The notes: generated by a model from the sequence alone, not told the origin. Counted from the first letter of the stretch, positions 45,669 through 62,126 are shown. The stretch: DNA of 64,000 nt from Nitrosopumilaceae archaeon (GCA_965208905.1 OZ242365.1:1376001-1440000); one strand, 5' to 3'. A program made the numbers and translations.

Positions 45669-48326
45669 GTGAATGTAATTTGGATGGCATTGTTGTTATC
45701 TTGGGCCGCCTTTGTATCGGCATCATATGCAGATGTGTCGTATCATACAAGCGGATTTCATGCGTTGGATGGCCCAACCGGCATAGATACAATCACCATA
45801 CAAAACCACACATATGCCATAGTGAGTAGTTCTGTTGATGGGGCAGTCCAGATACTAAATATAACCAACCCCTATACACCACAGCCTGTATACAGTATAT
45901 CTGGCCAATACCTAATTGATGCGCAGGATGTTGTCGCAGTAAACGTGGGAGATGAAGCATACATCATGATAGCTGGTGCCAAGACCGGTTCAATACAGAT
46001 TATAGATATTACCAATCCACAAGCACCCCTAATCATAGGAGACATTGCAGGATTTGAGACGTCAGATGACATGGGAGAGTTAGATCACATAGATGGCAGT
46101 CGTGCCGTTGATGACACATCTGGATTTGAGGCGCTGGGGGGTGTTAACAGTCTCGAACTTTTGTCACTGCCAGGCAACTATACATATGTGGTAGCTTCGG
46201 GCCCCGCAGATGATGCAATTCAGATAATGGATGTAACATTTTATGATTATCCGGGCCACATCTTTGACTACAATTGCATGTATGCACCCCGACCAGTAGC
46301 CAGCATATTTGATGGAGAGTATGATACAATATTAGATGGTGCATGGAGTACGCTTCCCATCAAAAAGTGGGACCGGGAGTACATACTTGCAGTGGGATCA
46401 AGCAGCTACATATCGGTTTTAGACGTAAGCCACATAACCACACCACATACGGACTTGCGCCCTTGTGATGACCCGCGCAGGAGCGGAACGTATCAGGATG
46501 GCAGTACTGCAGATTCATCTTCAGTACCACCATACACAGGGAGTTCATCCTTGTTTGGACCCCAGCCAATAGTTAGCATAACCAATAGTACAGCAGGGTT
46601 TGAGTCTTTATACAGCATAAACAAGATGGTTGCCATTACACATACAGATGATAACACAATACCAACGCGAGTCTACGAGGATATAGTACAAAGGACAGAG
46701 GGTACAAATGATACAACCTCCCTTAAACGAGGACCAACCCACATAATAGCGATTAGTGATAACTCTGTTCAAGTTATCAGAGTTAACAGCACATATGCAC
46801 ATTACCTAAACTCCACACATGATACGATACGACTGCCTCCCAAGACAGACATACCGGACATCACACTGACATCCGTGCATACAATATACGATGATACCGA
46901 CGGGTTTGAGGCGCTGGGCGGTGCTCGCGACATCAAACTTGCGTATATGAACAATCATACTATTGGCGTTATAGCAGGATTTGATGATGATGCACTACAG
47001 ATAATAGACTTTACCATACCCGAAGACCCTAAGCCCATATCCAGCATATTTGATGGCATAAATGGGTTTGAGGCCTTGGGTGGCGTATATGGTATCGAAA
47101 TTACAGATATTGGTGATAATACATACGTCATAGCCGCAAGTCATCTTGATGATGGTGTGCAGATAATAGACATTACCAATCCGTACAAGCCATTACCGGT
47201 ATCCGGCGTGTTTGATCACAGTTACTTTGACTCTTTGGGAGGGGCCAACCATGTCACCATATCGGAGATATCAGATAGATTATACGCCATGGTAACTGCC
47301 TCTTCAGACAACTCCCTTCAAATAATTGACTTTACCTCCCCTGAGTATCCTGTATCGGCTGCCAGCATACGCGATGATGCTGATGGGTTTGAGGCCTTGG
47401 GTGGCGCGCAGGACTTTGTATCAGCTACTATTAAAAATCGCACATATGGAGCCGTTGTGGGCCATTCAGACAATGCAGTCCAGATCATAGACATCACAGT
47501 ACCAAACAATCCAAAGCCCATATCTGCAATATTCGATGATACTGATGGGTTTGAGGCCCTGGGTGGCGCCAACGGCATAGATGCAGTTACAATACATAGG
47601 CACACATATCTTGTAGTGGCCAGCAAGTCAGACAATGCAGTACAGGTAGTCAACATGACCGACCCCGCACATCCCAGGCCTGTATATGCAATATTTGATG
47701 ATACCGATGGGTTTGAGGCCCTGGGTGGCGCCAGCAAGGTACAATGCCACAACACATACTGTCTAGTAACTGCAAACACAGATGATGCCGTCCAGATACT
47801 AAACATTACACAGGATGGTTCCCCGCAGCCGCTTGCAGCCATATTTGATGGCCAAGATGGCTTTAAATCTCTAAAAGATGCCGGCGAGATACAAATTACA
47901 ACCATAAACAGTCAGACATTGGCAGTTGTTACGGCCAGGGGGGATGATGGTTTACAGATTATAGACATAACAAACCCCATATCTCCAAAAGTAGTCTCCA
48001 ACCTGTTCCGTTACACAGAGGGATTTGACTCGCTGAGCGGTATTCGAAATGTAAGCATATACAATGACACATATGCCATTACAGCCAACGGACTAGGCGG
48101 TACTGTATCCATAATAGACATGACATCTCCAGATTCGCCCAAAGTCATATCATCGATAAATTATCATATGTATGGTCTAGGTGACCTGTACGGCGTAACC
48201 GGCATAGACATATACAACAACACCTATGCCGTATTTTCCAGCAAAGACAAGAGCAGTGTCTTAATATTTGATATTGCAGAGCCGTCTTCACCCCGACTGG
48301 TATCTGTGATTAATGATCAAAAATAA
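45669..48326 (+). CDS. Secreted LVIVD-type beta-propeller repeat protein
   Basis: Signal peptide; repeated DxxDGFEALGGA...YA.V....D.AVQIIDITNP..P.PV. Confidence 0.88.
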   Translation: MNVIWMALLLSWAAFVSASYADVSYHTSGFHALDGPTGIDTITIQNHTYAIVSSSVDGAVQILNITNPYTPQPVYSISGQYLIDAQDVVAVNVGDEAYIMIAGAKTGSIQIIDITNPQAPLIIGDIAGFETSDDMGELDHIDGSRAVDDTSGFEALGGVNSLELLSLPGNYTYVVASGPADDAIQIMDVTFYDYPGHIFDYNCMYAPRPVASIFDGEYDTILDGAWSTLPIKKWDREYILAVGSSSYISVLDVSHITTPHTDLRPCDDPRRSGTYQDGSTADSSSVPPYTGSSSLFGPQPIVSITNSTAGFESLYSINKMVAITHTDDNTIPTRVYEDIVQRTEGTNDTTSLKRGPTHIIAISDNSVQVIRVNSTYAHYLNSTHDTIRLPPKTDIPDITLTSVHTIYDDTDGFEALGGARDIKLAYMNNHTIGVIAGFDDDALQIIDFTIPEDPKPISSIFDGINGFEALGGVYGIEITDIGDNTYVIAASHLDDGVQIIDITNPYKPLPVSGVFDHSYFDSLGGANHVTISEISDRLYAMVTASSDNSLQIIDFTSPEYPVSAASIRDDADGFEALGGAQDFVSATIKNRTYGAVVGHSDNAVQIIDITVPNNPKPISAIFDDTDGFEALGGANGIDAVTIHRHTYLVVASKSDNAVQVVNMTDPAHPRPVYAIFDDTDGFEALGGASKVQCHNTYCLVTANTDDAVQILNITQDGSPQPLAAIFDGQDGFKSLKDAGEIQITTINSQTLAVVTARGDDGLQIIDITNPISPKVVSNLFRYTEGFDSLSGIRNVSIYNDTYAITANGLGGTVSIIDMTSPDSPKVISSINYHMYGLGDLYGVTGIDIYNNTYAVFSSKDKSSVLIFDIAEPSSPRLVSVINDQK

Positions 48327-51991: not shown

Positions 51992-52939
51992 ATGGTAGTA
52001 AATTTTATACGTGTATACAAAATTTATCACGATATAATGTTGTTTTCAATACAAGGCAAAAGACTCAACAGAATAAGAGAAATAGGTTTTGAGTTAGAAT
52101 CAGAGCTGCAACGCCTAATAGAAAACAACCTAGAATCCATACTAGAGATCAGTTTTGTAAAAAACGAGATGAAAGTGAGAAACTTTCGCATCGATACGGT
52201 TGGATTTGATCCGGACTCTAGGTCCTTTGTGATTGTAGAGTATAAACGGGACAAAAACCAATCTATAATAGATCAGGGCATGGCATACGTGTCACTACTG
52301 CTGGAAAACAAGGCAGAATTCATACTTGCGTATAATGAAAAATTTCAAAAGCCTATACGAAAGGAAGACATAGATTGGACATCATCAAGAATTGTTTTTA
52401 TCGCCAAATCGTTTACCGAGCATCAAAAACAGGCATCGGGGTTCAAGGATCTGCCCATAGAGCTTTATGAGATAAAACATTACGAAAACAAAACCATACT
52501 GTGTAATTCGGTAACCACAAAAAACACAGAATCAATTAAAACTATACGTAAGAAACCAAACGACAGAATCAATAAGGAGATAAGAACATACACTGAAGAA
52601 GATCATCTAGCAAGGGCGGCCCCGGAAATAAAACAGATTTACGTAGAAATCAAACAGATCATGGAATCTTTGTATGATGACATGCAGGTTATTCCAAAAA
52701 AATTGGCGATAACGTTCAAAGCAGAACATAAGTTTGCTTGGGTTGTTTTACGCAAGAATGCTATTGATGTCTATCTCAAAGCCAAAGTAGACCGTCTAGA
52801 TGATTCCAAAAGAATTCTACAGGATGTCACCAATATCGGCCACTGGGGCGGAGGCGACTCACGGATAAGAATTGCAACGACCTCAGAGTTACCATATGTG
52901 CGTGGCCTGATTGAACAAGCCTACACTGAATTCAAGTGA
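51992..52939 (+). CDS. PD-(D/E)xK (NucS-like) nuclease fused to a DUF5655-like domain
   Basis: ESELQ, RIDTVG...VIVEYK; C-terminal DVTNIGHWGGGD. Confidence 0.75.
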   Translation: MVVNFIRVYKIYHDIMLFSIQGKRLNRIREIGFELESELQRLIENNLESILEISFVKNEMKVRNFRIDTVGFDPDSRSFVIVEYKRDKNQSIIDQGMAYVSLLLENKAEFILAYNEKFQKPIRKEDIDWTSSRIVFIAKSFTEHQKQASGFKDLPIELYEIKHYENKTILCNSVTTKNTESIKTIRKKPNDRINKEIRTYTEEDHLARAAPEIKQIYVEIKQIMESLYDDMQVIPKKLAITFKAEHKFAWVVLRKNAIDVYLKAKVDRLDDSKRILQDVTNIGHWGGGDSRIRIATTSELPYVRGLIEQAYTEFK

Positions 52940-52956
52940 CAAATAGGCAGGTTCAC

Positions 52957-54255
52957 ATGAATCCAAAACATAAAACAAAATTCAAGAAGGTGAAATGGCT
53001 CTTTGGCAGGGAGATTGAGATTCCAGAAGGATGGAAATGGGAAAAACTAGAAAATAATTCTACATTAAAGGGTAGAATTGGTTGGCAAGGATTAACAACT
53101 GCCGAATACCTAAAACATGGTAAGTATTATCTCGTAACAGGAACTGATTTTAAAAACGGTTCCATTTATTGGGAAAATTGTGTTTATGTAAATAAAGACC
53201 GTTACTCTCAAGATTCTAACATTCAACTAAAGAAAAATGATGTCTTAGTTACAAAAGATGGAACGATAGGAAAAGTTGCCTTTGTTTATATTCTTTCAAA
53301 ACCTGCAACACTAAACAGCGGAGTTTTTGTCATTCGTCCAATTAACAAAACGTATTTTCCTTTATTCCTATACTATGTTTTACGCTCAGATTATTTTGAG
53401 AAGTTTCTAGATAGACTCAAAGCAGGATCAACCATTAATCATCTATATCAAAAAGATTTTGTTAATTTTAAATTTCCGATCCCATCGAGATCAGAACAAA
53501 CCCGTATTGCATCAATCCTTGGCGGAGTTGATGCATGTATAGAGGCCACACAGAAAATAATTGAAAAATATGAGAGATTAAAGAAAGGCCTAATGCAGCA
53601 TCTTTTAAGTCACGGGATTAATCATACCAAATTCAAAAAAGTGAAATGGTATTATAACAAAGAAATAAAAATTCCATATAAGTGGGAGTGGAGTGAATTG
53701 GGTAACGAAGGGAGCCTTTCTTCAGGTGCCACACCTAAACGCGATCACCCTAAATATTACAATGGTAATATTTTATGGGTTTCAAGTGGAGAATTAAATT
53801 ACAATTTAATTACAACGACTAACGAATTAATAACTGTCCTCGGTCTACAAAAAACTAATTTAAAAATTCACTCAGAAGGTACTTTTCTTTTTGCAATTAC
53901 TGGATTAGAAGCAAGAGGAACGAGAGGGCGGTGCGCAATCTTGGGAAGACCTGCCACTATTAACCAATCCTGTATGGCTTTTTATAATTCTTCATTAGAT
54001 GTTAAATTTTTATTTTACTATTTTTTAGCATTTGGAGAAAAAATTATTTTTGCAACAGCACAAGGAACAAAACAACAAAGTTTAAATTTAGAAATATCTA
54101 AGAAAATCAAAATTCCTATTCCGTCTTTCTCAGAACAACAAAAGATTGCATCAATCCTGTCAGGAGTTGATGCAATTCAAAATCTGTTTTGGCCTATAAA
54201 AATATGTGTAGGATTAGTAATGTTTTTAATACTTTTAAGAGTAGTAAAACTATGA
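52957..54255 (+). CDS. hsdS: Type I R-M specificity subunit hsdS-A (two TRDs; conserved C-terminal helix missing after the site at 54147-54174)
   Basis: IPEGW, P..SEQ.RIASIL..VD, LKKGLMQHLL; homology ends abruptly after SGVDA. Confidence 0.92.
   Translation: MNPKHKTKFKKVKWLFGREIEIPEGWKWEKLENNSTLKGRIGWQGLTTAEYLKHGKYYLVTGTDFKNGSIYWENCVYVNKDRYSQDSNIQLKKNDVLVTKDGTIGKVAFVYILSKPATLNSGVFVIRPINKTYFPLFLYYVLRSDYFEKFLDRLKAGSTINHLYQKDFVNFKFPIPSRSEQTRIASILGGVDACIEATQKIIEKYERLKKGLMQHLLSHGINHTKFKKVKWYYNKEIKIPYKWEWSELGNEGSLSSGATPKRDHPKYYNGNILWVSSGELNYNLITTTNELITVLGLQKTNLKIHSEGTFLFAITGLEARGTRGRCAILGRPATINQSCMAFYNSSLDVKFLFYYFLAFGEKIIFATAQGTKQQSLNLEISKKIKIPIPSFSEQQKIASILSGVDAIQNLFWPIKICVGLVMFLILLRVVKL
52993..53029 (+). 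repeat. Inverted repeat A (partner 56942-56978), 35/37 identical
   Basis: AAATGGCTCTTTGG(CAG/AAA)GGAGATTGAGATTCCAGAAG. Confidence 0.85.
53508..53535 (+). repeat. Putative recombination site B (partner 56460-56487, inverted)
   Basis: TGCATCAATCC-TTGGC-GGAGTTGATGCA; 34/35 identity over 53506-53540 vs 56455-56489. Confidence 0.9.
54147..54174 (+). repeat. Putative recombination site C (partner 55800-55827, inverted)
   Basis: TGCATCAATCC-TGTCA-GGAGTTGATGCA; 32/33 identity over 54142-54174 vs 55800-55832. Confidence 0.9.
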
Positions 54256-54464
54256 GTACAATCGTACAGAAAAAGACGTATGCAGTGATAATTGCAAAAG
54301 ATCTTGAAGAAGGAGGATTTGTCGGTACGTGTGATGAACTGCATGCAGTTTCAGAAGGAGATACATTTGGGGAGATCGTAGAAAATATGAAAGAAGCAAT
54401 GGAGTTAGCGGCCGAAGAATCTGGAAATCCAACTAACTTCAATATGTTAGTAGTAGAATGCTAA
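54252..54464 (+). CDS. hicB: HicB-family antitoxin (short form)
   Basis: YAVIIAKDLEEGGFVGTCDELHAVSEGDTFGEIVENMKEAMEL. Confidence 0.85.
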   Translation: MSTIVQKKTYAVIIAKDLEEGGFVGTCDELHAVSEGDTFGEIVENMKEAMELAAEESGNPTNFNMLVVEC

Positions 54465-54700
54465 TGTCAAAGTTTCCAAGTGTGTCAGGTAATCAAATGA
54501 CAAAATATCTTCAAAGTAAGGGGTTCGCCATAACAAAGAGAAGAGGAAGTCATGTAACATTAAGATACAAAAATATTTTTACAGTTATACCTTTGGGTAG
54601 TAAAAGGCTGAAGATCAGAACTCAGTTTTCCATACTACTGTATGCTGGTATTAGTAAAGAAGAATTTGTTAATGACTATGACAGTGGGCTGGTAGCATAA
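54458..54700 (+). CDS. hicA: HicA-family mRNA interferase toxin
   Basis: LQSKGFAITKRRGSHV...VIP...ILLYAGISKEEF. Confidence 0.88.
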   Translation: MLMSKFPSVSGNQMTKYLQSKGFAITKRRGSHVTLRYKNIFTVIPLGSKRLKIRTQFSILLYAGISKEEFVNDYDSGLVA

Positions 54701-54757
54701 AGTAGCTGATAACTCTCACTTGCAAGTAGAAATAGAAACTTTTCGATTAATCTATAC

Positions 54758-55678
54758 ATGTCCAAACACACAAATCAAAGAAGTATGATGCTGTTTGAAG
54801 AATCAATAAAATCAAAATACACCAAGCAGAATTACATATCACATCTAAACCAATTCAAAAAGTTTAGCGGTATATCTAATGTAGATCATTGGCTGAATAT
54901 TCCATCAAATGAACTACAAACTGTACTAGAAGATTATGTCATATACTTAAAGCATACTACGAGCCCAAACTCTATCCCATCAAAGCTTAGGGGCATAAGA
55001 CATTTTTTTGTGATGAACCGAATTAAGCTTGACTGGGACATAATTTGTAAGATGTTCCCTCCTAAACAAAAAACTTCTACTTTGAGAGCATACACCACAG
55101 GAGAGGTACAAAAGATGCTTTTGCATACCAAGAACTCAAGAGATAAAGCTCTAATTCACTTCCTGGCATCAACCGGAGCAAGAATCGGAGTGTTTGATCA
55201 CCCGTTGTTAATAAAACATAGACAAAAAATGCCATCAAATTGCACTGCGTTTCTGTTTTATGCAGGAACTGTTGAAGAATATTGGTCATTTCTCACACCG
55301 CAGGCAACTAAGATACTTGATGTCTATCACAACATACGTAAACGCGACGGTGAAACTTTTAAGCCAGACACTCCCATATTTGTAACATCAAAACATAATT
55401 CAACTCAGCTTAGTTGGAGTGGTGCACGCTCTGTAATATATAGAAATATTTCTAAAACCACAATAAGACTCAAGCATGGTAATCGTTTTAACGTTCAAGC
55501 AGACCATGGATTTAGAAAAAGATTTAACACCATACTTAAGATGGATAATTCTGTAAACCATAATATAGCAGAAAAATTAATGGGGCATAAAAATGGTCTA
55601 GATGGGGTATATTTTACTCCGTCGCTGGAAGAATTATTTACAGAATTTAAAAAGGTTATAAATCGATTGCAGATCTAA
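54758..55678 (+). CDS. Tyrosine recombinase (probable hsdS invertase)
   Basis: Catalytic residues present: STGAR, HGFRKR, LMGH, VYF. Confidence 0.92.
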   Translation: MSKHTNQRSMMLFEESIKSKYTKQNYISHLNQFKKFSGISNVDHWLNIPSNELQTVLEDYVIYLKHTTSPNSIPSKLRGIRHFFVMNRIKLDWDIICKMFPPKQKTSTLRAYTTGEVQKMLLHTKNSRDKALIHFLASTGARIGVFDHPLLIKHRQKMPSNCTAFLFYAGTVEEYWSFLTPQATKILDVYHNIRKRDGETFKPDTPIFVTSKHNSTQLSWSGARSVIYRNISKTTIRLKHGNRFNVQADHGFRKRFNTILKMDNSVNHNIAEKLMGHKNGLDGVYFTPSLEELFTEFKKVINRLQI

Positions 55679-55700
55679 CTGTGTCGATGAAAATGTGTAA

Positions 55701-57014
55701 TTATATTTTTACTCTAATTTTTCCAGTGAGGAGCTTCTGCATCAATCCTTTCTTTAGACGTTCTAATTTTTTCTTATATTCCTGATTCTTCTGAATGTAT
55801 GCATCAACTCCTGACAGAATTGATGCAATCTTGGTTTGTTCATCTATTTCAGGTATAGGAATTATAAAATTTCTTAGATCTTTTTGTGTGAATAAAGGAA
55901 CTGTAGTACCAGATGTAAATGCTTTACAATATGTTTGAAATGGTTTTGATTTGAAGAACCAATAGAGGAATTCTGGTTTTAACGATTTATCATGCACTCG
56001 AACTGTAACAACATGTGAATTGACTGTAGTTGGTTCTGGAAGTTTTTTTACAAATCCAATTCTTCCAATGTCTCCATCTTTTGCAACTAATACATCTCCA
56101 TTTTGCAATTGAATTTCTGGAGATTCAGAATATCTAAATTGACTCAATCGTTTAATACCTTGTGTAAAATTAATTCCATATAGGATATCTACTAAACTCC
56201 AAACAGATAGCATCAAGAAACCTGATTCAACGTATTCGTCAGAGCGAAGATTTTTCCATCCAATTCTCCCGTGTACTGTGGCAAATATATTCAATCTAGA
56301 TAACTGCCAATCTACAGGAATTTTATAATCTATAAAATGCCTTCCGAAAGTTATCTTTTTGAACTTTATGTGACCAATACCTCTAGTCAGAAGCTGTTGC
56401 ATCAAACCCCTCTTCAGACGTTCTGTTTTCTCTATTACCTTCTGCGTGGATTCAATACATGCGTCAACTCCGCCAAGGATTGATGCAATCTGAACTTGTT
56501 CTGGAAGTGGAGGTATAGGCATAAGTGAATTAGAAACAACGGTACTTGTAATCGCAGGATACGCCATTCCTTCCATTTGTCTAAAATAATTTTCATGAAA
56601 ATAATGACTCTGACAATAATTAAAAAGAAAATGTGGATGACAAGCAGATTTGGATCTTAGAACTGCAAATCCCGTAGAACAAACTATATTTGATTTATCT
56701 ATACTTATTAAAGAAAATGCTTTCAGATATGGGCGCACCAATGATATGATGACATCATCTACTCTTACAATCCTCTGAGCTCTACTAGGACGTTCATATA
56801 ACTGAAATTTTTCTAATTTTGTTGTTTGAAAATTCTTGATGGCTGAGATATCAATATAATCAATTTCATCAAATCTGTAGTCGTTTTGAATCTGTTCAGG
56901 ATTGATTTTTGCAATATCCTGTATGCACAACAGTCTCCACTCTTCTGGAATCTCAATCTCCTTTCCAAAGAGCCATTTTACTTTTTTAAAACTATTGTTC
57001 AGTTTTGTATTCAT
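55701..57014 (-). CDS. hsdS: Type I R-M specificity subunit hsdS-B (complete)
   Basis: Two TRDs, both conserved helices, ends LKKGLMQKLLTGKIRVKI; start MNTKL. Confidence 0.95.
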   Translation of the reverse strand: MNTKLNNSFKKVKWLFGKEIEIPEEWRLLCIQDIAKINPEQIQNDYRFDEIDYIDISAIKNFQTTKLEKFQLYERPSRAQRIVRVDDVIISLVRPYLKAFSLISIDKSNIVCSTGFAVLRSKSACHPHFLFNYCQSHYFHENYFRQMEGMAYPAITSTVVSNSLMPIPPLPEQVQIASILGGVDACIESTQKVIEKTERLKRGLMQQLLTRGIGHIKFKKITFGRHFIDYKIPVDWQLSRLNIFATVHGRIGWKNLRSDEYVESGFLMLSVWSLVDILYGINFTQGIKRLSQFRYSESPEIQLQNGDVLVAKDGDIGRIGFVKKLPEPTTVNSHVVTVRVHDKSLKPEFLYWFFKSKPFQTYCKAFTSGTTVPLFTQKDLRNFIIPIPEIDEQTKIASILSGVDAYIQKNQEYKKKLERLKKGLMQKLLTGKIRVKI

Positions 57015-57034
57015 ATGGCCCCCACTACTACAAT

Positions 57035-58558
57035 CTAAACTTTGAACCCCAGTTCCTTCATGTCTTGTATGACCTTGCATTCTAATTCTTTGCGTTCATC
57101 ATTTAACTGATTGAGATCATTTAGAGTCTCCTGAATGTCAATCTCCTCCTCTGGTTCTGATATGTCCACGTATCTTGGGACGTTGAGATTGTACTCGTTC
57201 TCCTTTAATTCTTCAATACCTGCAACATGACAATATCTGTCAACATCTCGAAAGTTACAAAAATGTTTTGCAATCTTGTTAATGTCTTCTTCTCTGAGAT
57301 TGTTCCTATTCTTACCCTCTAGGTATTCTTTTGCCCCATAAATGAAGATTATTTTGTTTTTTCTCTTTGTTGGTTTTTTCTTGTTTAGAACCAAAATGCA
57401 TGCAGGTATGCCGGTACCAAAAAATAGTTTTTCAGGTAGTGCAATGACTCCCTCTATGACATCTTCGTTTATCATGCCTTCCCGTATGTTTTTTTCTGCT
57501 CCTCCACGAAACAAAACCCCCTGCGAGCAGATTATGGCAGCCTGTCCAGTATTATTTAGTTGTGCAAACATATGTTGTATGAATGCAAAGTCTGCTTTGC
57601 CCTTTGCAGGGGGAACTCCAAAACGAAATCTATTGTATGGATCATTTTCTGCGCCCTTGTCATTCCAGTCCATCGAGAACGGAAAATTGGCAAGCACCCT
57701 ATCATATGTCTTGAGAGTGCCCCCCTCTACATGTTGTGGTTTTGCCAACACATCGCCATACTCTATTGTAAAGTTAGGTATTCCATGTAGTACCATGTTC
57801 ATCTTACACATTGCCAAGTTTCCATAGTTGGATTCCTGTCCATCCAGTACCAGATTTCTCGGATCACTGTTTTGTCCCTCTACATGTTTGCGGGACATTA
57901 TCAACATGCCGCCGGATCCGCATGTAGGGTCACATATGCGCATTCCTTCTTTTGGATCTATTATGTTCACTAGTAGATTGACTACCTCCCGCGGCGTAAA
58001 GAATTCGCCACCCTTCTTTTTTGTAGCATCTGCAAACTGCTCGAGTAGATACTCGTATGCGTCACCAAATATGTCCTCTTTTTCAAGATCTGAGTTTCTA
58101 AGTCTGGGTTCGTTAAAATGAGATATGAGATTTGCAAGCTGATCATCAGGATACTTTCTGGGATCCGAATACTTTGTATTTGTCAGAACTCCCTCAAGTC
58201 TTGGATTTGCCAACTCAATCTTTTTGCATAACTCGTCTATCTTCTGACCAACTTTGCGACTCACGCCCTGTAGATTATGCCATCTTGCATCGCCAGGTAC
58301 AAAAAAGTCATGGTAAAATTCCAGATTTGCATCCTCTTCTGACTTGCCTTGACTCAACAATTCTTCTACATTCTCCTCAAACCTGTCATTGAGACGCTTG
58401 AGAAACAACAAAGTCATGACAGGTTGTCTGTACTCTGATGCATCAAGGCTACCACGCAGTATGTCTGATGCCTTCCACAGATGTATCTTGAGTAAGTCTA
58501 GTGTTACATTGCTCAATATATCTGACAAATAATAGCAGGACTTAATAGAGATTCCCAT
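57035..58558 (-). CDS. hsdM: Type I R-M methyltransferase subunit (true start may be about 58511)
   Basis: LWKASDILRG, GEFFTP, DPTCGSGG, ANFPF, YNLNVPRYV. Confidence 0.95.
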   Translation of the reverse strand: MGISIKSCYYLSDILSNVTLDLLKIHLWKASDILRGSLDASEYRQPVMTLLFLKRLNDRFEENVEELLSQGKSEEDANLEFYHDFFVPGDARWHNLQGVSRKVGQKIDELCKKIELANPRLEGVLTNTKYSDPRKYPDDQLANLISHFNEPRLRNSDLEKEDIFGDAYEYLLEQFADATKKKGGEFFTPREVVNLLVNIIDPKEGMRICDPTCGSGGMLIMSRKHVEGQNSDPRNLVLDGQESNYGNLAMCKMNMVLHGIPNFTIEYGDVLAKPQHVEGGTLKTYDRVLANFPFSMDWNDKGAENDPYNRFRFGVPPAKGKADFAFIQHMFAQLNNTGQAAIICSQGVLFRGGAEKNIREGMINEDVIEGVIALPEKLFFGTGIPACILVLNKKKPTKRKNKIIFIYGAKEYLEGKNRNNLREEDINKIAKHFCNFRDVDRYCHVAGIEELKENEYNLNVPRYVDISEPEEEIDIQETLNDLNQLNDERKELECKVIQDMKELGFKV

Positions 58559-58611: not shown

Positions 58612-61599
58612 ATGCATTTTGATGTCGGCAGGGGGGATGAGGCAACAGAATCGGAGCTTCCGGCACTCAAACAGCTTGTTGCCATGGGATACGAATACAA
58701 GACCCAAGCAGAACTAAACAAGACACGACGGGATTTTCGTGAAGTGTTGTTATACGACAGACTGGAAAGGGCAATCAGAAGACTCAATCCAGATATTGAC
58801 GATGATGGAATTAATGATGCCATAATGCAGATAGCAGAGGACTCGTATCCACATCACCTGGACATTATAGACACAAACGAGAGGATCTGGGCCAAGTTGG
58901 TAGAACTCTCAAAATCCAGTGGACTAATTCCCATAGTGGTGACACAGATTTCTGATGGTGAGCCAGTACAGAGAATAGTCAAGGTGTTTGACTTTAAAGA
59001 TCCACAAAACAATGACTTTCTTGTGACCAATCAGTTTCATCTTGATGGATTCAAGCGCCACATACTGCCTGACATAGTTATATTTGTAAACGGAGTCCCA
59101 CTGGTAATAATAGAGTGCAAATCGCCTGCACTGCTTGATCCAATAGTAGAGGCAGTAGAAAAGAAAAACTTTAACAGATATCAGCAAAGAGGCGAGGGAT
59201 ATGAACGGCTCTTCTTTTACAACCATTGCCTTGTGGCCACATGTGGAACCTTGGCAAGAGTGGGAACTGTAGGATCTACTGCAAACCATTTTGCAAGATG
59301 GGCCAAACCACATCCCATGACAGAAGATGATGTGGAGAGCCTCTGCGGCGCAAAGCCACGCGAACAGGAGATCCTTATTGCAGGATTGTTATCCAAGAAA
59401 AATCTGCTTGATCATCTGCAAAACTTTGTACTGTTTGACATCAAGGGAAACCAGCGCGTCAAGATGATTGCAAAACACCAACAATTCCACGCAGTAACGC
59501 AATGCGTAAAAAGACTGAGTGAGGATACAAAAGACAAAGGTGGAGTAATATGGCACACACAAGGATCTGGCAAATCATTTTCCATGTTGTGGTTTGCAAC
59601 ACATCTAAAGTACAAGCTTGACAATCCACCGATTCTCATAATTACTGACAGAAAGCAACTTGACAAGCAGATCCACGAGACATTCAAAAAGTGTGGTTTT
59701 CCAAGCCCGGTCAGGGCAAAGTCCGGACTACATCTTGCCGAACTACTCAAAAACCCGCGCGGAAAGACGATAATGGCTATAATAGACAAATTTGCAACTA
59801 CGGCAGAGCCTTTTACAAAAGATAAAGTGATATGCTTGGTAGATGAAGCACATCGTTCCCAATTCAAGATAAATGCCGAACAGATGAGGGCCGCTATGCC
59901 AAATGCAGTATTTTACGCTTTTACTGGAACCCCAATCACAAAGCCCGAGAAGAACATCTACAAGGTATTTGGACCACTCATTGACAAGTACGGCTTTCAA
60001 GAGTCACAGGCAGATGGTGCAACAATCCCTATAAAATACCAGGGAAGGATGCCACAACTGCATGTAGAAGGAGGGACTACAATAGATGAGATATTTGAAA
60101 GGGTATTCTTTGATATGGATCAGGAACTAAAGGACAAACTCAAGAGGCAGTATGTTACCAAGGGTAAGATTGCCGAGGCCCCATCACGAATAAAACAGAT
60201 AGCACTAGATCTTACAAAGCACTATACAAAGCATATAGAACCCAATGGTTACAAGGCAATGCTTGTCGCACCATCAAGAGAAGCTGCAGTGACATACAAA
60301 AGAGAGCTTGACATGATAAATGCGCCGCCTTCCAAGATAATAATGACATCGTCCTTGGGAGAGAGGGGGAAGGACGATCACAGTTGGGATGACTATTATC
60401 TTTCGACAAAACAACAAGAGCACGAATCAGAGAAATTCAAGAGTCCTGATGATACTACAAAGATTCTCATCGTGGTAGACATGCTACTTGTGGGCTATGA
60501 TGTTCCCATATGCCAAGTATTATATCTGGATCACGGGATAAGGGAGCACAACCTGCTTCAGGCAATAGCCAGAGTGAACAGACCATATGACGATGCAAAG
60601 AAATACGGCCTCATAGTGGATTATTCGGGAATCACAAAAGAGCTGCAGAAAGCCTTGGAAATGTTTGAGAATCAGGATGTGGATGGTGCCTTGACTCCTA
60701 TGGATGAACTTCTTCCCATATTGAAGCAGAGGTACGTTAATGCAATAGCATTCTTTGATGGGGTTGACATGGAAAATACAGGTAAGATAATCGAGCATTT
60801 TGAGTCTGCACATACAAGAGATTCATTTGAATACACTTTCAAGACATTTGCAGCAGCACTTGATTCTGTCTTGCCTAGTAAGGAGGCAGAACCATATATT
60901 GCAGATTTTAAGGCATTAAGCAGGGCACGACAAATAATTAGAACATATTATGAAGGAATAGAATTCAGCATGCACAGCTATGCAAAAAAGATTCAACAAC
61001 TAATAGATGATCACATACACTCCCTTGGCATAAAAGAGCTCATAGAGCCAAGGACCATCACCCATGAGAACTTTCTGGCAACTATACAAGAAAAAATGCC
61101 AGAAAACAAGCGTGCCCAAGCTGCCCTCATACGTAACAAGGCAATTCAGGTAATCGAAGAACTTATGCCAAACAACCCTGCATATTATGAAAGACTGTAC
61201 GAGATGTTGCAGAGAATAATCCAGGATGAAGAGGATAGACGAAAGAAAAATGCAGATTACTTTACAAATCCAGAAGAATATGAAAAAATATACAATAAAG
61301 TACTTGCTGAAGAGGCAGAAAGAAAGAAAATTTTTGGAGATTACGAGGCTACCCAGTTCGAGTTCTCACTGTACAGCAGACTCAATCAAACGCAGAACAG
61401 ACAGGATTCCATTAATATTGTACAAAAGATATACAAAAAGATCAAACCACTTACAGGTCTAGTAGATTACAAGACAAATCCTATGGTCGAGAAAGATATA
61501 AAAAAAATAGTCTACGAGACCCTCAAGCCACACATGAATTATGAACAAATCATGAGTGTTGCAGAAGAGACGATCATGCTGGTGAGGCACAGATTATGA
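58612..61599 (+). CDS. hsdR: Type I R-M restriction subunit
   Basis: PDIVIFVNGVPLVIIECK, HTQGSGKS, DEAHRSQ, FTGTP, QAIARVNR. Confidence 0.96.
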   Translation: MHFDVGRGDEATESELPALKQLVAMGYEYKTQAELNKTRRDFREVLLYDRLERAIRRLNPDIDDDGINDAIMQIAEDSYPHHLDIIDTNERIWAKLVELSKSSGLIPIVVTQISDGEPVQRIVKVFDFKDPQNNDFLVTNQFHLDGFKRHILPDIVIFVNGVPLVIIECKSPALLDPIVEAVEKKNFNRYQQRGEGYERLFFYNHCLVATCGTLARVGTVGSTANHFARWAKPHPMTEDDVESLCGAKPREQEILIAGLLSKKNLLDHLQNFVLFDIKGNQRVKMIAKHQQFHAVTQCVKRLSEDTKDKGGVIWHTQGSGKSFSMLWFATHLKYKLDNPPILIITDRKQLDKQIHETFKKCGFPSPVRAKSGLHLAELLKNPRGKTIMAIIDKFATTAEPFTKDKVICLVDEAHRSQFKINAEQMRAAMPNAVFYAFTGTPITKPEKNIYKVFGPLIDKYGFQESQADGATIPIKYQGRMPQLHVEGGTTIDEIFERVFFDMDQELKDKLKRQYVTKGKIAEAPSRIKQIALDLTKHYTKHIEPNGYKAMLVAPSREAAVTYKRELDMINAPPSKIIMTSSLGERGKDDHSWDDYYLSTKQQEHESEKFKSPDDTTKILIVVDMLLVGYDVPICQVLYLDHGIREHNLLQAIARVNRPYDDAKKYGLIVDYSGITKELQKALEMFENQDVDGALTPMDELLPILKQRYVNAIAFFDGVDMENTGKIIEHFESAHTRDSFEYTFKTFAAALDSVLPSKEAEPYIADFKALSRARQIIRTYYEGIEFSMHSYAKKIQQLIDDHIHSLGIKELIEPRTITHENFLATIQEKMPENKRAQAALIRNKAIQVIEELMPNNPAYYERLYEMLQRIIQDEEDRRKKNADYFTNPEEYEKIYNKVLAEEAERKKIFGDYEATQFEFSLYSRLNQTQNRQDSINIVQKIYKKIKPLTGLVDYKTNPMVEKDIKKIVYETLKPHMNYEQIMSVAEETIMLVRHRL

Positions 61600-62126
61600 A
61601 AAAAAACATCCAAGTAATTACTGCCACTATTCCATACAAGATCATACGGAGTGACAGGAGAAGAACATCTGAGATACAGGTAGGGGAGAATGGCATCGAA
61701 GTCAGGGTACCCATGCACAAGAAAGACAACGAGGTCATGGATATGATACATTCCAGACAGCAATGGATCTACAAAAAATATCTAGAATTTCAAACGGAGA
61801 AAAAGGGGTTCAAGAGTAGAGTTGGCAGACCATACATTGAGCGGCGTGTAGATGAGCTTGCAGTAAAGGTAGGTGCCAAACCATCCAAACTATTCATAAG
61901 ACCACTCAAAACAAGATGGGGCAGTGCAACATCAAATGGGACAATCACCATAAACTCTAGACTTTTTAAGGCACCAAAAAGTGTAATCGATTATGTCATA
62001 ATTCACGAGTTGTGCCACCTCAAGATACCGGGGCATTCTAGAACATATTGGAGTCTTGTGGAAATGCACATACCAAACTATATGGAAAAGATAAAATGGC
62101 TGAAAAAATATGGTAGGTTTATATGA
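61596..62126 (+). CDS. M48/YgjP-like (DUF45) metal-dependent hydrolase
   Basis: KTRWGS, DYVIIHELCHL; ATGA overlap with hsdR. Confidence 0.9.
   Translation: MKKNIQVITATIPYKIIRSDRRRTSEIQVGENGIEVRVPMHKKDNEVMDMIHSRQQWIYKKYLEFQTEKKGFKSRVGRPYIERRVDELAVKVGAKPSKLFIRPLKTRWGSATSNGTITINSRLFKAPKSVIDYVIIHELCHLKIPGHSRTYWSLVEMHIPNYMEKIKWLKKYGRFI

Follow-up and report, generated by a model that had tools for sequence, protein, structure and literature searches.

A probable hsdS shufflon at a Type I restriction-modification locus of an ammonia-oxidising Nitrosopumilaceae archaeon

Results

Gene content of the locus

The window analysed here is a 64,000-nt stretch (GCA_965208905.1 OZ242365.1:1376001-1440000) of the genome of a Nitrosopumilaceae archaeon, which consists of a single contig of 2,214,775 bases (~2.21 Mb) and contains archaeal amoA. 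The window carries a Type I restriction-modification (R-M) locus in which two hsdS genes converge on a recombinase gene. Judging from its sequence, this locus of an ammonia-oxidising archaeon is likely to be phase-variable, that is, to represent an hsdS shufflon. Its genes and candidate recombination sites, numbered from the first letter of the window, are as follows.

51992..52939, + strand, DUF5655 gene (Pfam PF18899, E 1.3e-11), directly upstream of hsdS2
52957..54255, + strand, hsdS2 (Pfam PF01420, two stretches, E 1.6e-43)
53508..53535, + strand, site B1, 28-bp dyad with centre TTGGCG in the codons for IASILGGVDA
54147..54174, + strand, site C1, 28-bp dyad with centre TGTCAG in the codons for IASILSGVDA, followed by an odd tail and the 70-aa open reading frame (ORF)
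54252..54464, + strand, 70-aa ORF (ORF70), upstream of hicA, putative antitoxin gene
54458..54700, + strand, hicA-like toxin gene (Pfam PF07927, 27.8 bits versus a cut-off of 27)
54758..55678, + strand, gene for a divergent tyrosine recombinase of 306 aa, the presumed invertase
55701..57014, - strand, hsdS1 (Pfam PF01420, two stretches, E 1.8e-32), directly downstream of hsdM
55800..55827, - strand, site C2, centre TGTCAG, next to the CR2 tail YIQKNQEYKKKLERLKKGLMQKLLTGKIRVKI
56460..56487, - strand, site B2, centre TTGGCG
57035..58558, - strand, hsdM (PF02384, E 1.9e-106; PF12161)
58612..61599, + strand, hsdR (PF18766, PF04313, PF22679)
61596..62126, + strand, gene for a YgjP-like metallopeptidase (PF01863, E 1.4e-40)

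The start of hsdS1 at 57014 was picked by its likeness to the N-terminus of hsdS2; the open frame extends further, to 57080. Each of the two genes contains two Methylase_S (PF01420) stretches, and hsdM and hsdR are adjacent, as is typical of genuine HsdS subunits. The parts of hsdS1 are arranged in the order TRD1 - B2 - CR1 - TRD2 - C2 - CR2, where TRD denotes a target-recognition domain and CR2 the C-terminal conserved helix. In hsdS2 the order is TRD1' - B1 - CR1' - TRD2' - C1, followed by an odd tail of 26 residues in place of CR2. This tail is a read-through into the cassette formed by the C site, ORF70, hicA, and the recombinase gene, and a proper CR2 is found only behind C2, so that hsdS1 is the sole full-length hsdS of the assembled state. 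Opposed hsdS genes, inverted repeats inside their coding regions, and a recombinase gene close by together make up the layout of an hsdS inverton.

Four codon-embedded sites with shared arms and two centres

The initial annotation had described four 28-bp dyads with common arms and two different cores. A scan with the pattern TGCATCAA-N12-TTGAYGCA clearly revealed the dyads at exactly these four places (7 strand-matches versus 0 expected from 100 shuffles), and the pattern occurs nowhere else in the 2,214,775-base genome. In gene orientation, B1 reads TGCATCAATCC TTGGCG GAGTTGATGCA, and B2 is identical except for GAC in place of GAT. C1 reads TGCATCAATCC TGTCAG GAGTTGATGCA, and C2 is identical except for ATTC in place of ATCC. 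The two cores could thereby be refined to 6-nt centres, TTGGCG for B and TGTCAG for C, flanked by 11-bp arms, TGCATCAAT(C/T)C and GAGTTGA(T/C)GCA; the B and C pairs differ in the centre alone. In each hsdS gene, the B site ends the first TRD and the C site the second. The direct orientation of B and C within a gene was borne out, with B1/C1 and B2/C2 forming direct repeats 639 and 660 nt apart, respectively. The partners B1/B2 and C1/C2 are inverted.

Two further candidates were discarded. An extra half-site reported earlier, TGCATCAATCCTT at 55738-55750 (+), does exist, but a role for it found no support, as only 2 of 11 related CR2 tails carry TTGATGCA; it corresponds to the G-L-M-Q codons of the CR2 helix, and we judged it a coincidence. 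At their 5' ends, the two hsdS genes share an inverted repeat of 82 nt (52954-53035 versus 56936-57017, 79% identity) with a 37-nt core containing two mismatches. In the four related loci with four sites, the corresponding match was weak in two (57-64 nt, ~79%) and lacking in two, and the repeat was read as conservation of the N-terminal coding sequence, not as a third pair of sites.

Site rules across related loci

We compared the sites with those of related Nitrosopumilaceae, comprising the family with the IASIL motif and a second hsdS family with the motif KIESIFxxIDA. Dyad sites were also present in records of Nitrosopumilus sp., Cenarchaeum sp., and Nitrosopumilaceae archaeon. Inverted partners shared an identical 6-nt centre in 21 of 21 pairs, 14 of them from the IASIL family (ten classified by script, four evident from the listing) and 7 of 7 from the second family. 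The central and the C-terminal site of one gene, by contrast, differed in their centres in all 27 genes (17 + 10), in the IASIL family by 2-4 nt (17/17 genes). C-type centres of the IASIL family follow TGTC(A/G/T)G throughout, whereas the central centres are locus-specific and agreed between different loci in just 2 of 66 comparisons (hand count). Common arms combined with centres that are class-specific and identical within a pair are the hallmark of heterospecific spacers, and on these counts the arrangement of arms and centres proposed for the window seems to hold throughout the related loci.

In five loci (G304, G072, G110, G160, and G207; 6 genes), B and C both encode IASILSGVDA, and the B/C difference resides in the third bases of the Leu and Ser codons, as in TTTCAG versus TGTCGG. 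A difference that is purely synonymous in five loci argues that it is maintained in the DNA itself. Gly versus Ser in the window would accordingly be one way of writing the B/C centre difference, which agrees with the earlier suggestion that it is a by-product of the DNA site.

The full four-site layout was found in five loci (the window, G304, G169, G172, and G317). The hsdS genes are convergent on the recombinase gene in the window and in G304; they diverge around hsdM and hsdR in G169, G172, and G317, where the recombinase gene lies outside the site-bounded segment. A single CR2 is present in all five of these IASIL loci, and the second tail is degenerate in G172. The repeat containing pair C measures 42-56 nt in 5/5 four-site loci, and its end coincides exactly with that of the site.

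Members of the second hsdS family were found at seven additional loci with a recombinase of this clade and on one short contig. The site of this family, TGAATCAATCT-N6-AGATTGATGCA, has arms that are symmetric at 10 of 11 positions, and positions 2 and 5-9 are invariant in 44 half-sites. That one half-site recurs under two different peptides points to conservation of the DNA and not of the protein, and it fixes the 11-6-11 reading of the site.

One genome, G100, contains a hybrid site, TGAATCAATCC TGTCTG GAGTTGACGCA (L052 6668-6697), which encodes IESILSGVDA. Its left arm belongs to the second family, its centre and right arm match C sites of the first, and it is located upstream of a hicA/ORF70/recombinase cassette.

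Synonymous constraint at the site codons

A search with the degenerate codon pattern for I-A-S-I-L-x-x-V-D-A retrieved 42 sites from 18 of 401 genomes, all belonging to the family of the window. Thirty-six were in stretches that also hold the clade recombinase or fragments of it, 4 were beside cassette remnants alone (G036, G160), and 2 had neither recombinase nor remnant (G343, at a contig end, and G302). The wobble bases of the arms proved to be nearly fixed in 46 distinct archaeal contexts: Ser was TCA in 46/46, Val GTT in 44/44, Ile ATT in 43/46, Gly GGA in 34/35, and the last Ala GCA in 42/46. Variation at three arm positions is confined to transitions (GCA/GCG, ATC/ATT, GAT/GAC). The Ser codon of the centre is free to vary (TCA 17, TCG 12, TCT 10, TCC 1), and third-base diversity at conserved flanking codons was ~0.4-0.65. 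The reduced synonymous variation anticipated by the initial annotation is thus evident from near-fixed arm wobble beside variable flanks.

As controls, we used six Type I loci of the same family (hsdM 64-78% identical) with no clade recombinase in the fetched stretch. They encode EQxxIASIL with the Ser codons TCC, TCT, TCC, TCT, TCA, and TCA and the Ala codons GCA, GCT, GCT, GCT, GCC, and GCC. In at least ten bacterial hsdS genes with the full peptide (126 stretches), every wobble base varies and perfect arms numbered 0. Hypergeometric comparison of linked with unlinked sites gave ~5e-5 for Ser and ~2e-6 for Ala, figures that overstate the case because related sites are not independent. The proximity of contig ends to sites was discarded as a signal, since a recombinase-less control contig ends there likewise.

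These data bear on the possibility that the dyad merely results from encoding the peptide IASILxxVDA with A+T-rich codons and has no function as DNA. By codon reading, 5 of the 8 outer arm pairs are indeed forced by the peptide A-S-I...V-D-A, with three wobble-wobble pairs completing the perfect dyad, and in Halanaerobium, hsdS genes that encode the peptide have 6-7 of the 8 arm matches. Unlinked family members with the same codon bias, however, do not keep the dyad, the Ser codon of the centre varies freely while that of the arm is invariably TCA, and the centres match in every partner pair. We therefore regard a mere peptide by-product as very improbable.

The initial annotation had also implied that the dyad should be confined to hsdS genes linked to a recombinase. 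This held for the six related loci and the bacterial genes, none of which keeps it, but not for two other cases. In G302, a perfect B-type site persists although no recombinase gene is present within 8 kb. The genome of the window itself has a second Type I locus, hsdM-hsdS-hsdR (G000:C1:1993000-1999500; L299 7000-8091), outside the window and with no recombinase nearby, which carries CGCATCAATTC TGTCAG AAATTGATGTC. This site ends the second domain of the hsdS gene; its C-type left arm and centre are intact, and its right arm is degenerate. Such a site might once have served, or might still occasionally serve, as a partner; alternatively, it may be left over from domain exchange. The second half of the same gene starts with FKKVKWLFGKEIEIPEEW, encoding the same peptide as the N-terminus of hsdS1. 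In G109, a further Type I locus (L291 6904-10560) has two opposed hsdS genes around hsdM; the 14 kb fetched contained no clade recombinase and no dyad.

The recombinase

In the alignment of the recombinase with its homologs, R142, H250-x-x-R253, H277, and Y285, which correspond to the catalytic residues of tyrosine recombinases, were invariant in 29/29 sequences; the hairpin lysine was not identified in this alignment. Many of the homologs have a precomputed match to PF00589. A profile built from the 29 sequences retrieved XerA (5hxy, E 0.0053). The AlphaFold2 model of the protein had a mean predicted local distance difference test score (pLDDT) of 71, and its best Foldseek match was XerA (E 7.6e-8), followed by Cre, XerH, IntI, and Tn1549 Int. 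Among the PDB matches listed, 31 of 33 were tyrosine recombinases and 2 were chains of the phage repressor SroF. The model thus predicts a two-domain fold like that of XerA or Cre.

The three other tyrosine-recombinase relatives encoded in the genome are 31-33% identical and lie far from the locus. With a single recombinase of its clade at the locus and the other relatives distant, the sequence is consistent with the earlier proposal that one enzyme serves all four sites.

A recombinase match at E <= 1e-30 was found in 108 of 401 genomes of the class, a tally that includes three flagged as unpublished, which no other result draws on. Sixteen of the best 20 loci from the 401 genomes (55-74% identity) have hsd genes by tblastn, a 17th has an hsdS-type site, and two of the other three are short contigs. 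Among more distant relatives from metagenomes (39-63% identity), which were retrieved with the recombinase alignment, hsd genes accompanied the recombinase in 3 of 80 loci, and no dyad was detected in these 80; a metagenome scan with the recombinase sequence alone returned zero relatives. The scarcity of hsd genes at the distant loci suggests that the shufflon enzyme forms one sub-clade within a broader family resembling integrases. Many of the 80 contigs (L197-L276) have recombinase genes (products 39-54% identical) that start ~130-230 nt from the contig end. These contig-end recombinases lack hsd genes and look like integrases edging variable or repeated elements.

The cassette order of C site, 70-aa ORF, hicA, and recombinase gene recurs in many loci. 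The cassette might therefore be a mobile element that inserts in the hsdS motif, with the sites as its attachment scars. Its recurrence also as decayed remnants, with neither hsdM nor hsdR nearby, would fit this explanation, as would the integrase-like relatives at contig ends without hsd genes and the failure to find the locus in 8 genomes of the same genus. The C sites that flank the cassette are inverted, however, whereas integration leaves direct sites; the B pair would have no role, yet it follows the same rules; and in G169, G172, and G317 the recombinase gene lies outside the segment that the sites delimit. On balance, insertion of a mobile cassette appears to be an unlikely origin of the sites.

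Rearrangements at the sites

To the extent that assembled contigs report on rearrangement, they showed one arrangement. In the probable source sample, represented by contigs of three runs (X10, X11, and X13), the 5-kb stretch was contained in one contig in the assembled arrangement, no inversion was seen, and no joints belonging to this organism were found. Contigs drop rare variants, and a single arrangement therefore does not show that inversion is absent.

Joints were obtained from a marine metagenome run, X1. A 482-nt contig covers 55493-55815 (22 differences and 4 gaps in 323 nt) and continues at 56476-56630 (1 difference in 155 nt). Similarity is thus ~93% on the side of the recombinase and CR2 and ~99% on the TRD1 side. 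The join is located inside C2 and B2, at the border of arm and centre, with 2 letters ambiguous. A second joint runs from the 3' part of hsdM across 583 letters without a match and resumes on the other strand from 54133 onward, which implies that the hsdM-linked gene of this relative continues into the cassette on its ORF70 side. At a third joint, the match to the stretch stops precisely at 54174, where C1 ends. We conclude that close relatives have their module borders within the dyads; the source is a mixed community, and the joints do not show switching in a clone. Joints and loose ends of the X1 relative also occur at 56936-56987, within the repeat at the gene starts.

Rearrangement could also have proceeded without the recombinase, if the sites were ordinary conserved coding repeats subject to homologous recombination or gene conversion and the enzyme served something else. 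In the four related four-site loci, the B-pair repeats extend into CR1 and are long (97-227 nt, 80-96% identity). According to the available text of PMC4948785, moreover, inversions at the 298-bp and 85-bp repeats of Streptococcus pneumoniae did not require PsrA. The lack of any inversion in the contigs examined here would likewise be compatible with this alternative. In the window, however, the repeats comprise merely ~37 nt (B) and 33-42 nt (C), with one mismatch in each. Homologous recombination would also leave unexplained the fixed arm wobble beside variable flanks, the same half-site under another peptide in the second hsdS family, the loss of the dyad in six recombinase-less loci, and the steady difference between B and C centres. 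We therefore give it little chance as the principal process.

Neighbouring genes

No Pfam match was obtained for the 70-aa ORF, even with E allowed up to 10; in relatives it is kept beside hicA at 52-78% identity. Its ATG overlaps the stop codon of hsdS2 (ATGA), and the ORF itself overlaps hicA. The identical overlap of stop and ATG was found in G207, G352, and G036. By virtue of this overlap, an hsdS gene lacking CR2 would read into ORF70, hicA, and the recombinase gene.

The stop codon of the DUF5655 gene is 17 nt from the ATG of hsdS2, whose transcription is probably supplied by this upstream gene. DUF5655 homologs are present in the fetched stretches of the related Type I loci G304 and G169 and also in that of the recombinase-less G111. 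The gene, which has a weakly HSDR_N_2-like N-terminus, occurs in several archaeal Type I loci at varying positions (window 51992-52939; L070 11201-12133; L064/L055; L290 9289-10194). The YgjP-like gene is the usual neighbour behind hsdR in related loci. Further away in the window, at 45669-48326, an 885-aa ORF, whose start is signal-like and which contains numerous repeats following DGFEALGG...DDAVQIIDIT.P..P, probably encodes a secreted repeat protein.

Discussion

A model of two inversion circuits

We propose that the intergenic recombinase most likely recognises 28-bp sites in which two 11-bp arms enclose a 6-bp centre, with the half-site consensus TG(C/A)(A/G)TCAAT(C/T)(C/T), placed in the codons of the motif that ends each TRD. 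As the arms are common to the four sites, one enzyme could serve them all. B would recombine with B only and C with C only, by identity of their centres, and since each pair is inverted, the outcome would be inversion. Strand exchange by Cre, Flp, lambda Int, and XerCD requires identity in the overlap region. If the same applies here, the differing centres would prevent recombination between B and C, which would either remove CR1 together with TRD2 or give rise to genes with three domains and with one, and is presumably disfavoured.

Inversion at C would move the sole CR2 between the hsdS genes, and inversion at B would swap the second domain plus everything after it. When exchange in the site centres was simulated, both reading frames were kept and one full-length HsdS resulted in each of the four states:

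As assembled: full-length TRD1+TRD2, hsdM-linked
B inverted: full-length TRD1'+TRD2, DUF5655-linked
C inverted: full-length TRD1'+TRD2', DUF5655-linked
B and C inverted: full-length TRD1+TRD2', hsdM-linked

TRD1 and TRD1' are 22% identical and TRD2 and TRD2' 23%, and with domains this dissimilar, four DNA specificities would be expected. The sequences themselves show the sites with their geometry, the preserved reading frames, the rules that the sites follow across the family, and the constraint on the DNA. Binding and strand exchange by this enzyme, the block to B x C recombination, expression of both genes, and switching itself are what we infer from this arrangement.

Several observations weigh against the model. 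With 19.5 bits (E 8.9e-4), the recombinase stayed below the Pfam PF00589 cut-off of 27.1, a phmmer search against PDB gave no match, and the catalytic segment 249-290 was modelled at a pLDDT below 50. The sites compared come from related genomes and are non-independent samples. Wobble covariation between the third bases of Ala and Asp was not significant (27/46 symmetric versus ~22.6 expected). The same direction is taken by the peptide-forced arm pairs, the sites kept beside cassette remnants alone, the perfect site of G302, the C-like site of the second Type I locus, the extension of the relatives' B repeats into CR1 (up to 227 nt at 88-96% identity), where homologous recombination at B may occur, and the single arrangement in the source contigs. 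Finally, the X1 contig joins TRD1 to a C-type centre, which indicates that the B/C barrier is not absolute over evolutionary time. Taking these points into account, we still lean towards a family of hsdS shufflons with a dedicated recombinase and codon-embedded 11-6-11 sites, in which the circuits are parted by the 6-bp centre alone, often synonymously, and a single movable CR2, together with two expressed genes, would provide four specificities with one complete HsdS at a time.

Novelty and implications

Inversion systems of hsdS genes are already known from S. pneumoniae, Mycoplasma pulmonis, and surveys of bacteria. The surveys (PMC7672463, PMC7394358, PMC9881135) are concerned with bacteria; the available portions state that 92% of the hosts were host-associated (PMC7672463) and that archaea were not scanned (PMC9881135). 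Archaeal invertons are described as minimally investigated in a preprint (PMC10028968), and the word 'archaea' does not occur in the main texts of PMC7394358 and PMC7383803; the supplementary tables of PMC7394358 and PMC7672463 may list archaeal loci. A full-text literature search, supplementary tables aside, found no published hsdS inversion locus from Nitrosopumilus, and papers retrieved for Thaumarchaeota mention none in their titles or at the start of their abstracts. A search for an archaeal tyrosine recombinase combined with specificity-subunit inversion matched one unrelated paper, and the accessible part of PMC8919816 describes no such archaeal locus. As far as these searches reach, the hsdS shufflon is new for archaea. 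New are the host group, the use of one site type with shared arms and with class-specific, often synonymously distinguished centres, the same half-site in two hsdS families, and the layout with a single CR2.

If the model is correct, it places this mechanism in abundant free-living and sponge-associated nitrifiers and bears on how they deal with viruses. Given the uncommonly small size and the regularity of its sites, the locus would lend itself well to three questions: how protein coding and recombinase recognition make use of the same bases, how few changes in the centre separate two recombination circuits, and whether a single CR2 guards against two active specificities per cell. The pair of site and enzyme could also serve as a compact orthogonal recombination tool.

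Comparison with known systems

In the SpnD39III/Spn556II (cod, ivr) locus of S. pneumoniae, hsdS inversions involving PsrA/CreX reshuffle the TRDs, as the available parts of PMC4948785 and PMC7672463 describe. Both are Type I loci with several opposed hsdS genes, inverted repeats in coding sequence, and a tyrosine recombinase encoded in the locus. The pneumococcal locus has three unrelated repeat pairs (15, 298, and 85 bp), of which only the 15-bp pair needed PsrA in the study of PMC4948785, whereas both archaeal pairs are of one 28-bp site type with shared arms and different centres. The spare pneumococcal genes are silent and partial, whereas both archaeal hsdS genes have starts and the single CR2 would decide which one is whole. 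The host also differs, being a free-living archaeon here and a host-associated bacterium in the case of S. pneumoniae.

M. pulmonis HvsR is one tyrosine recombinase that acts on two short site classes, vip and sip, in the central and 3' regions of hsdS genes. The vip and sip sites differ from each other both in length and in sequence and are not known to form a single dyad type with two alternative centres. HvsR-driven hsdS inversions are also mentioned in the available text of PMC4948785.

Archaeal XerA was the best structural and profile match of the recombinase, which is just 17-19% identical to it. The dif site is laid out as 28 bp in the order 11-6-11, the same as proposed for the archaeal sites. 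It occurs singly near the replication terminus, whereas the shufflon sites are paired inside hsdS genes, and the expected outcome is inversion and not dimer resolution.

The shufflon of plasmid R64 employs one tyrosine recombinase, Rci, and several short sfx sites in a coding region, and C-terminal protein segments are reshuffled. Among the sfx sites the core is shared, one arm differs, and any inverted pair can thus recombine. In the archaeal sites, by contrast, the arms are shared and the centres differ, which would yield two separate inversion circuits.

A parallel to this logic is provided by lox511, lox2272, F3, and F5, which have identical arms and recombine with same-spacer partners only, one or two spacer changes being sufficient. 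Heterospecific lox and FRT sites are laboratory constructs used in engineering, whereas the same logic is apparently natural here, lies within a reading frame, and is synonymous in five loci. If our model holds, the hsdS genes of these archaea contain the natural counterpart of engineered heterospecific lox sites.

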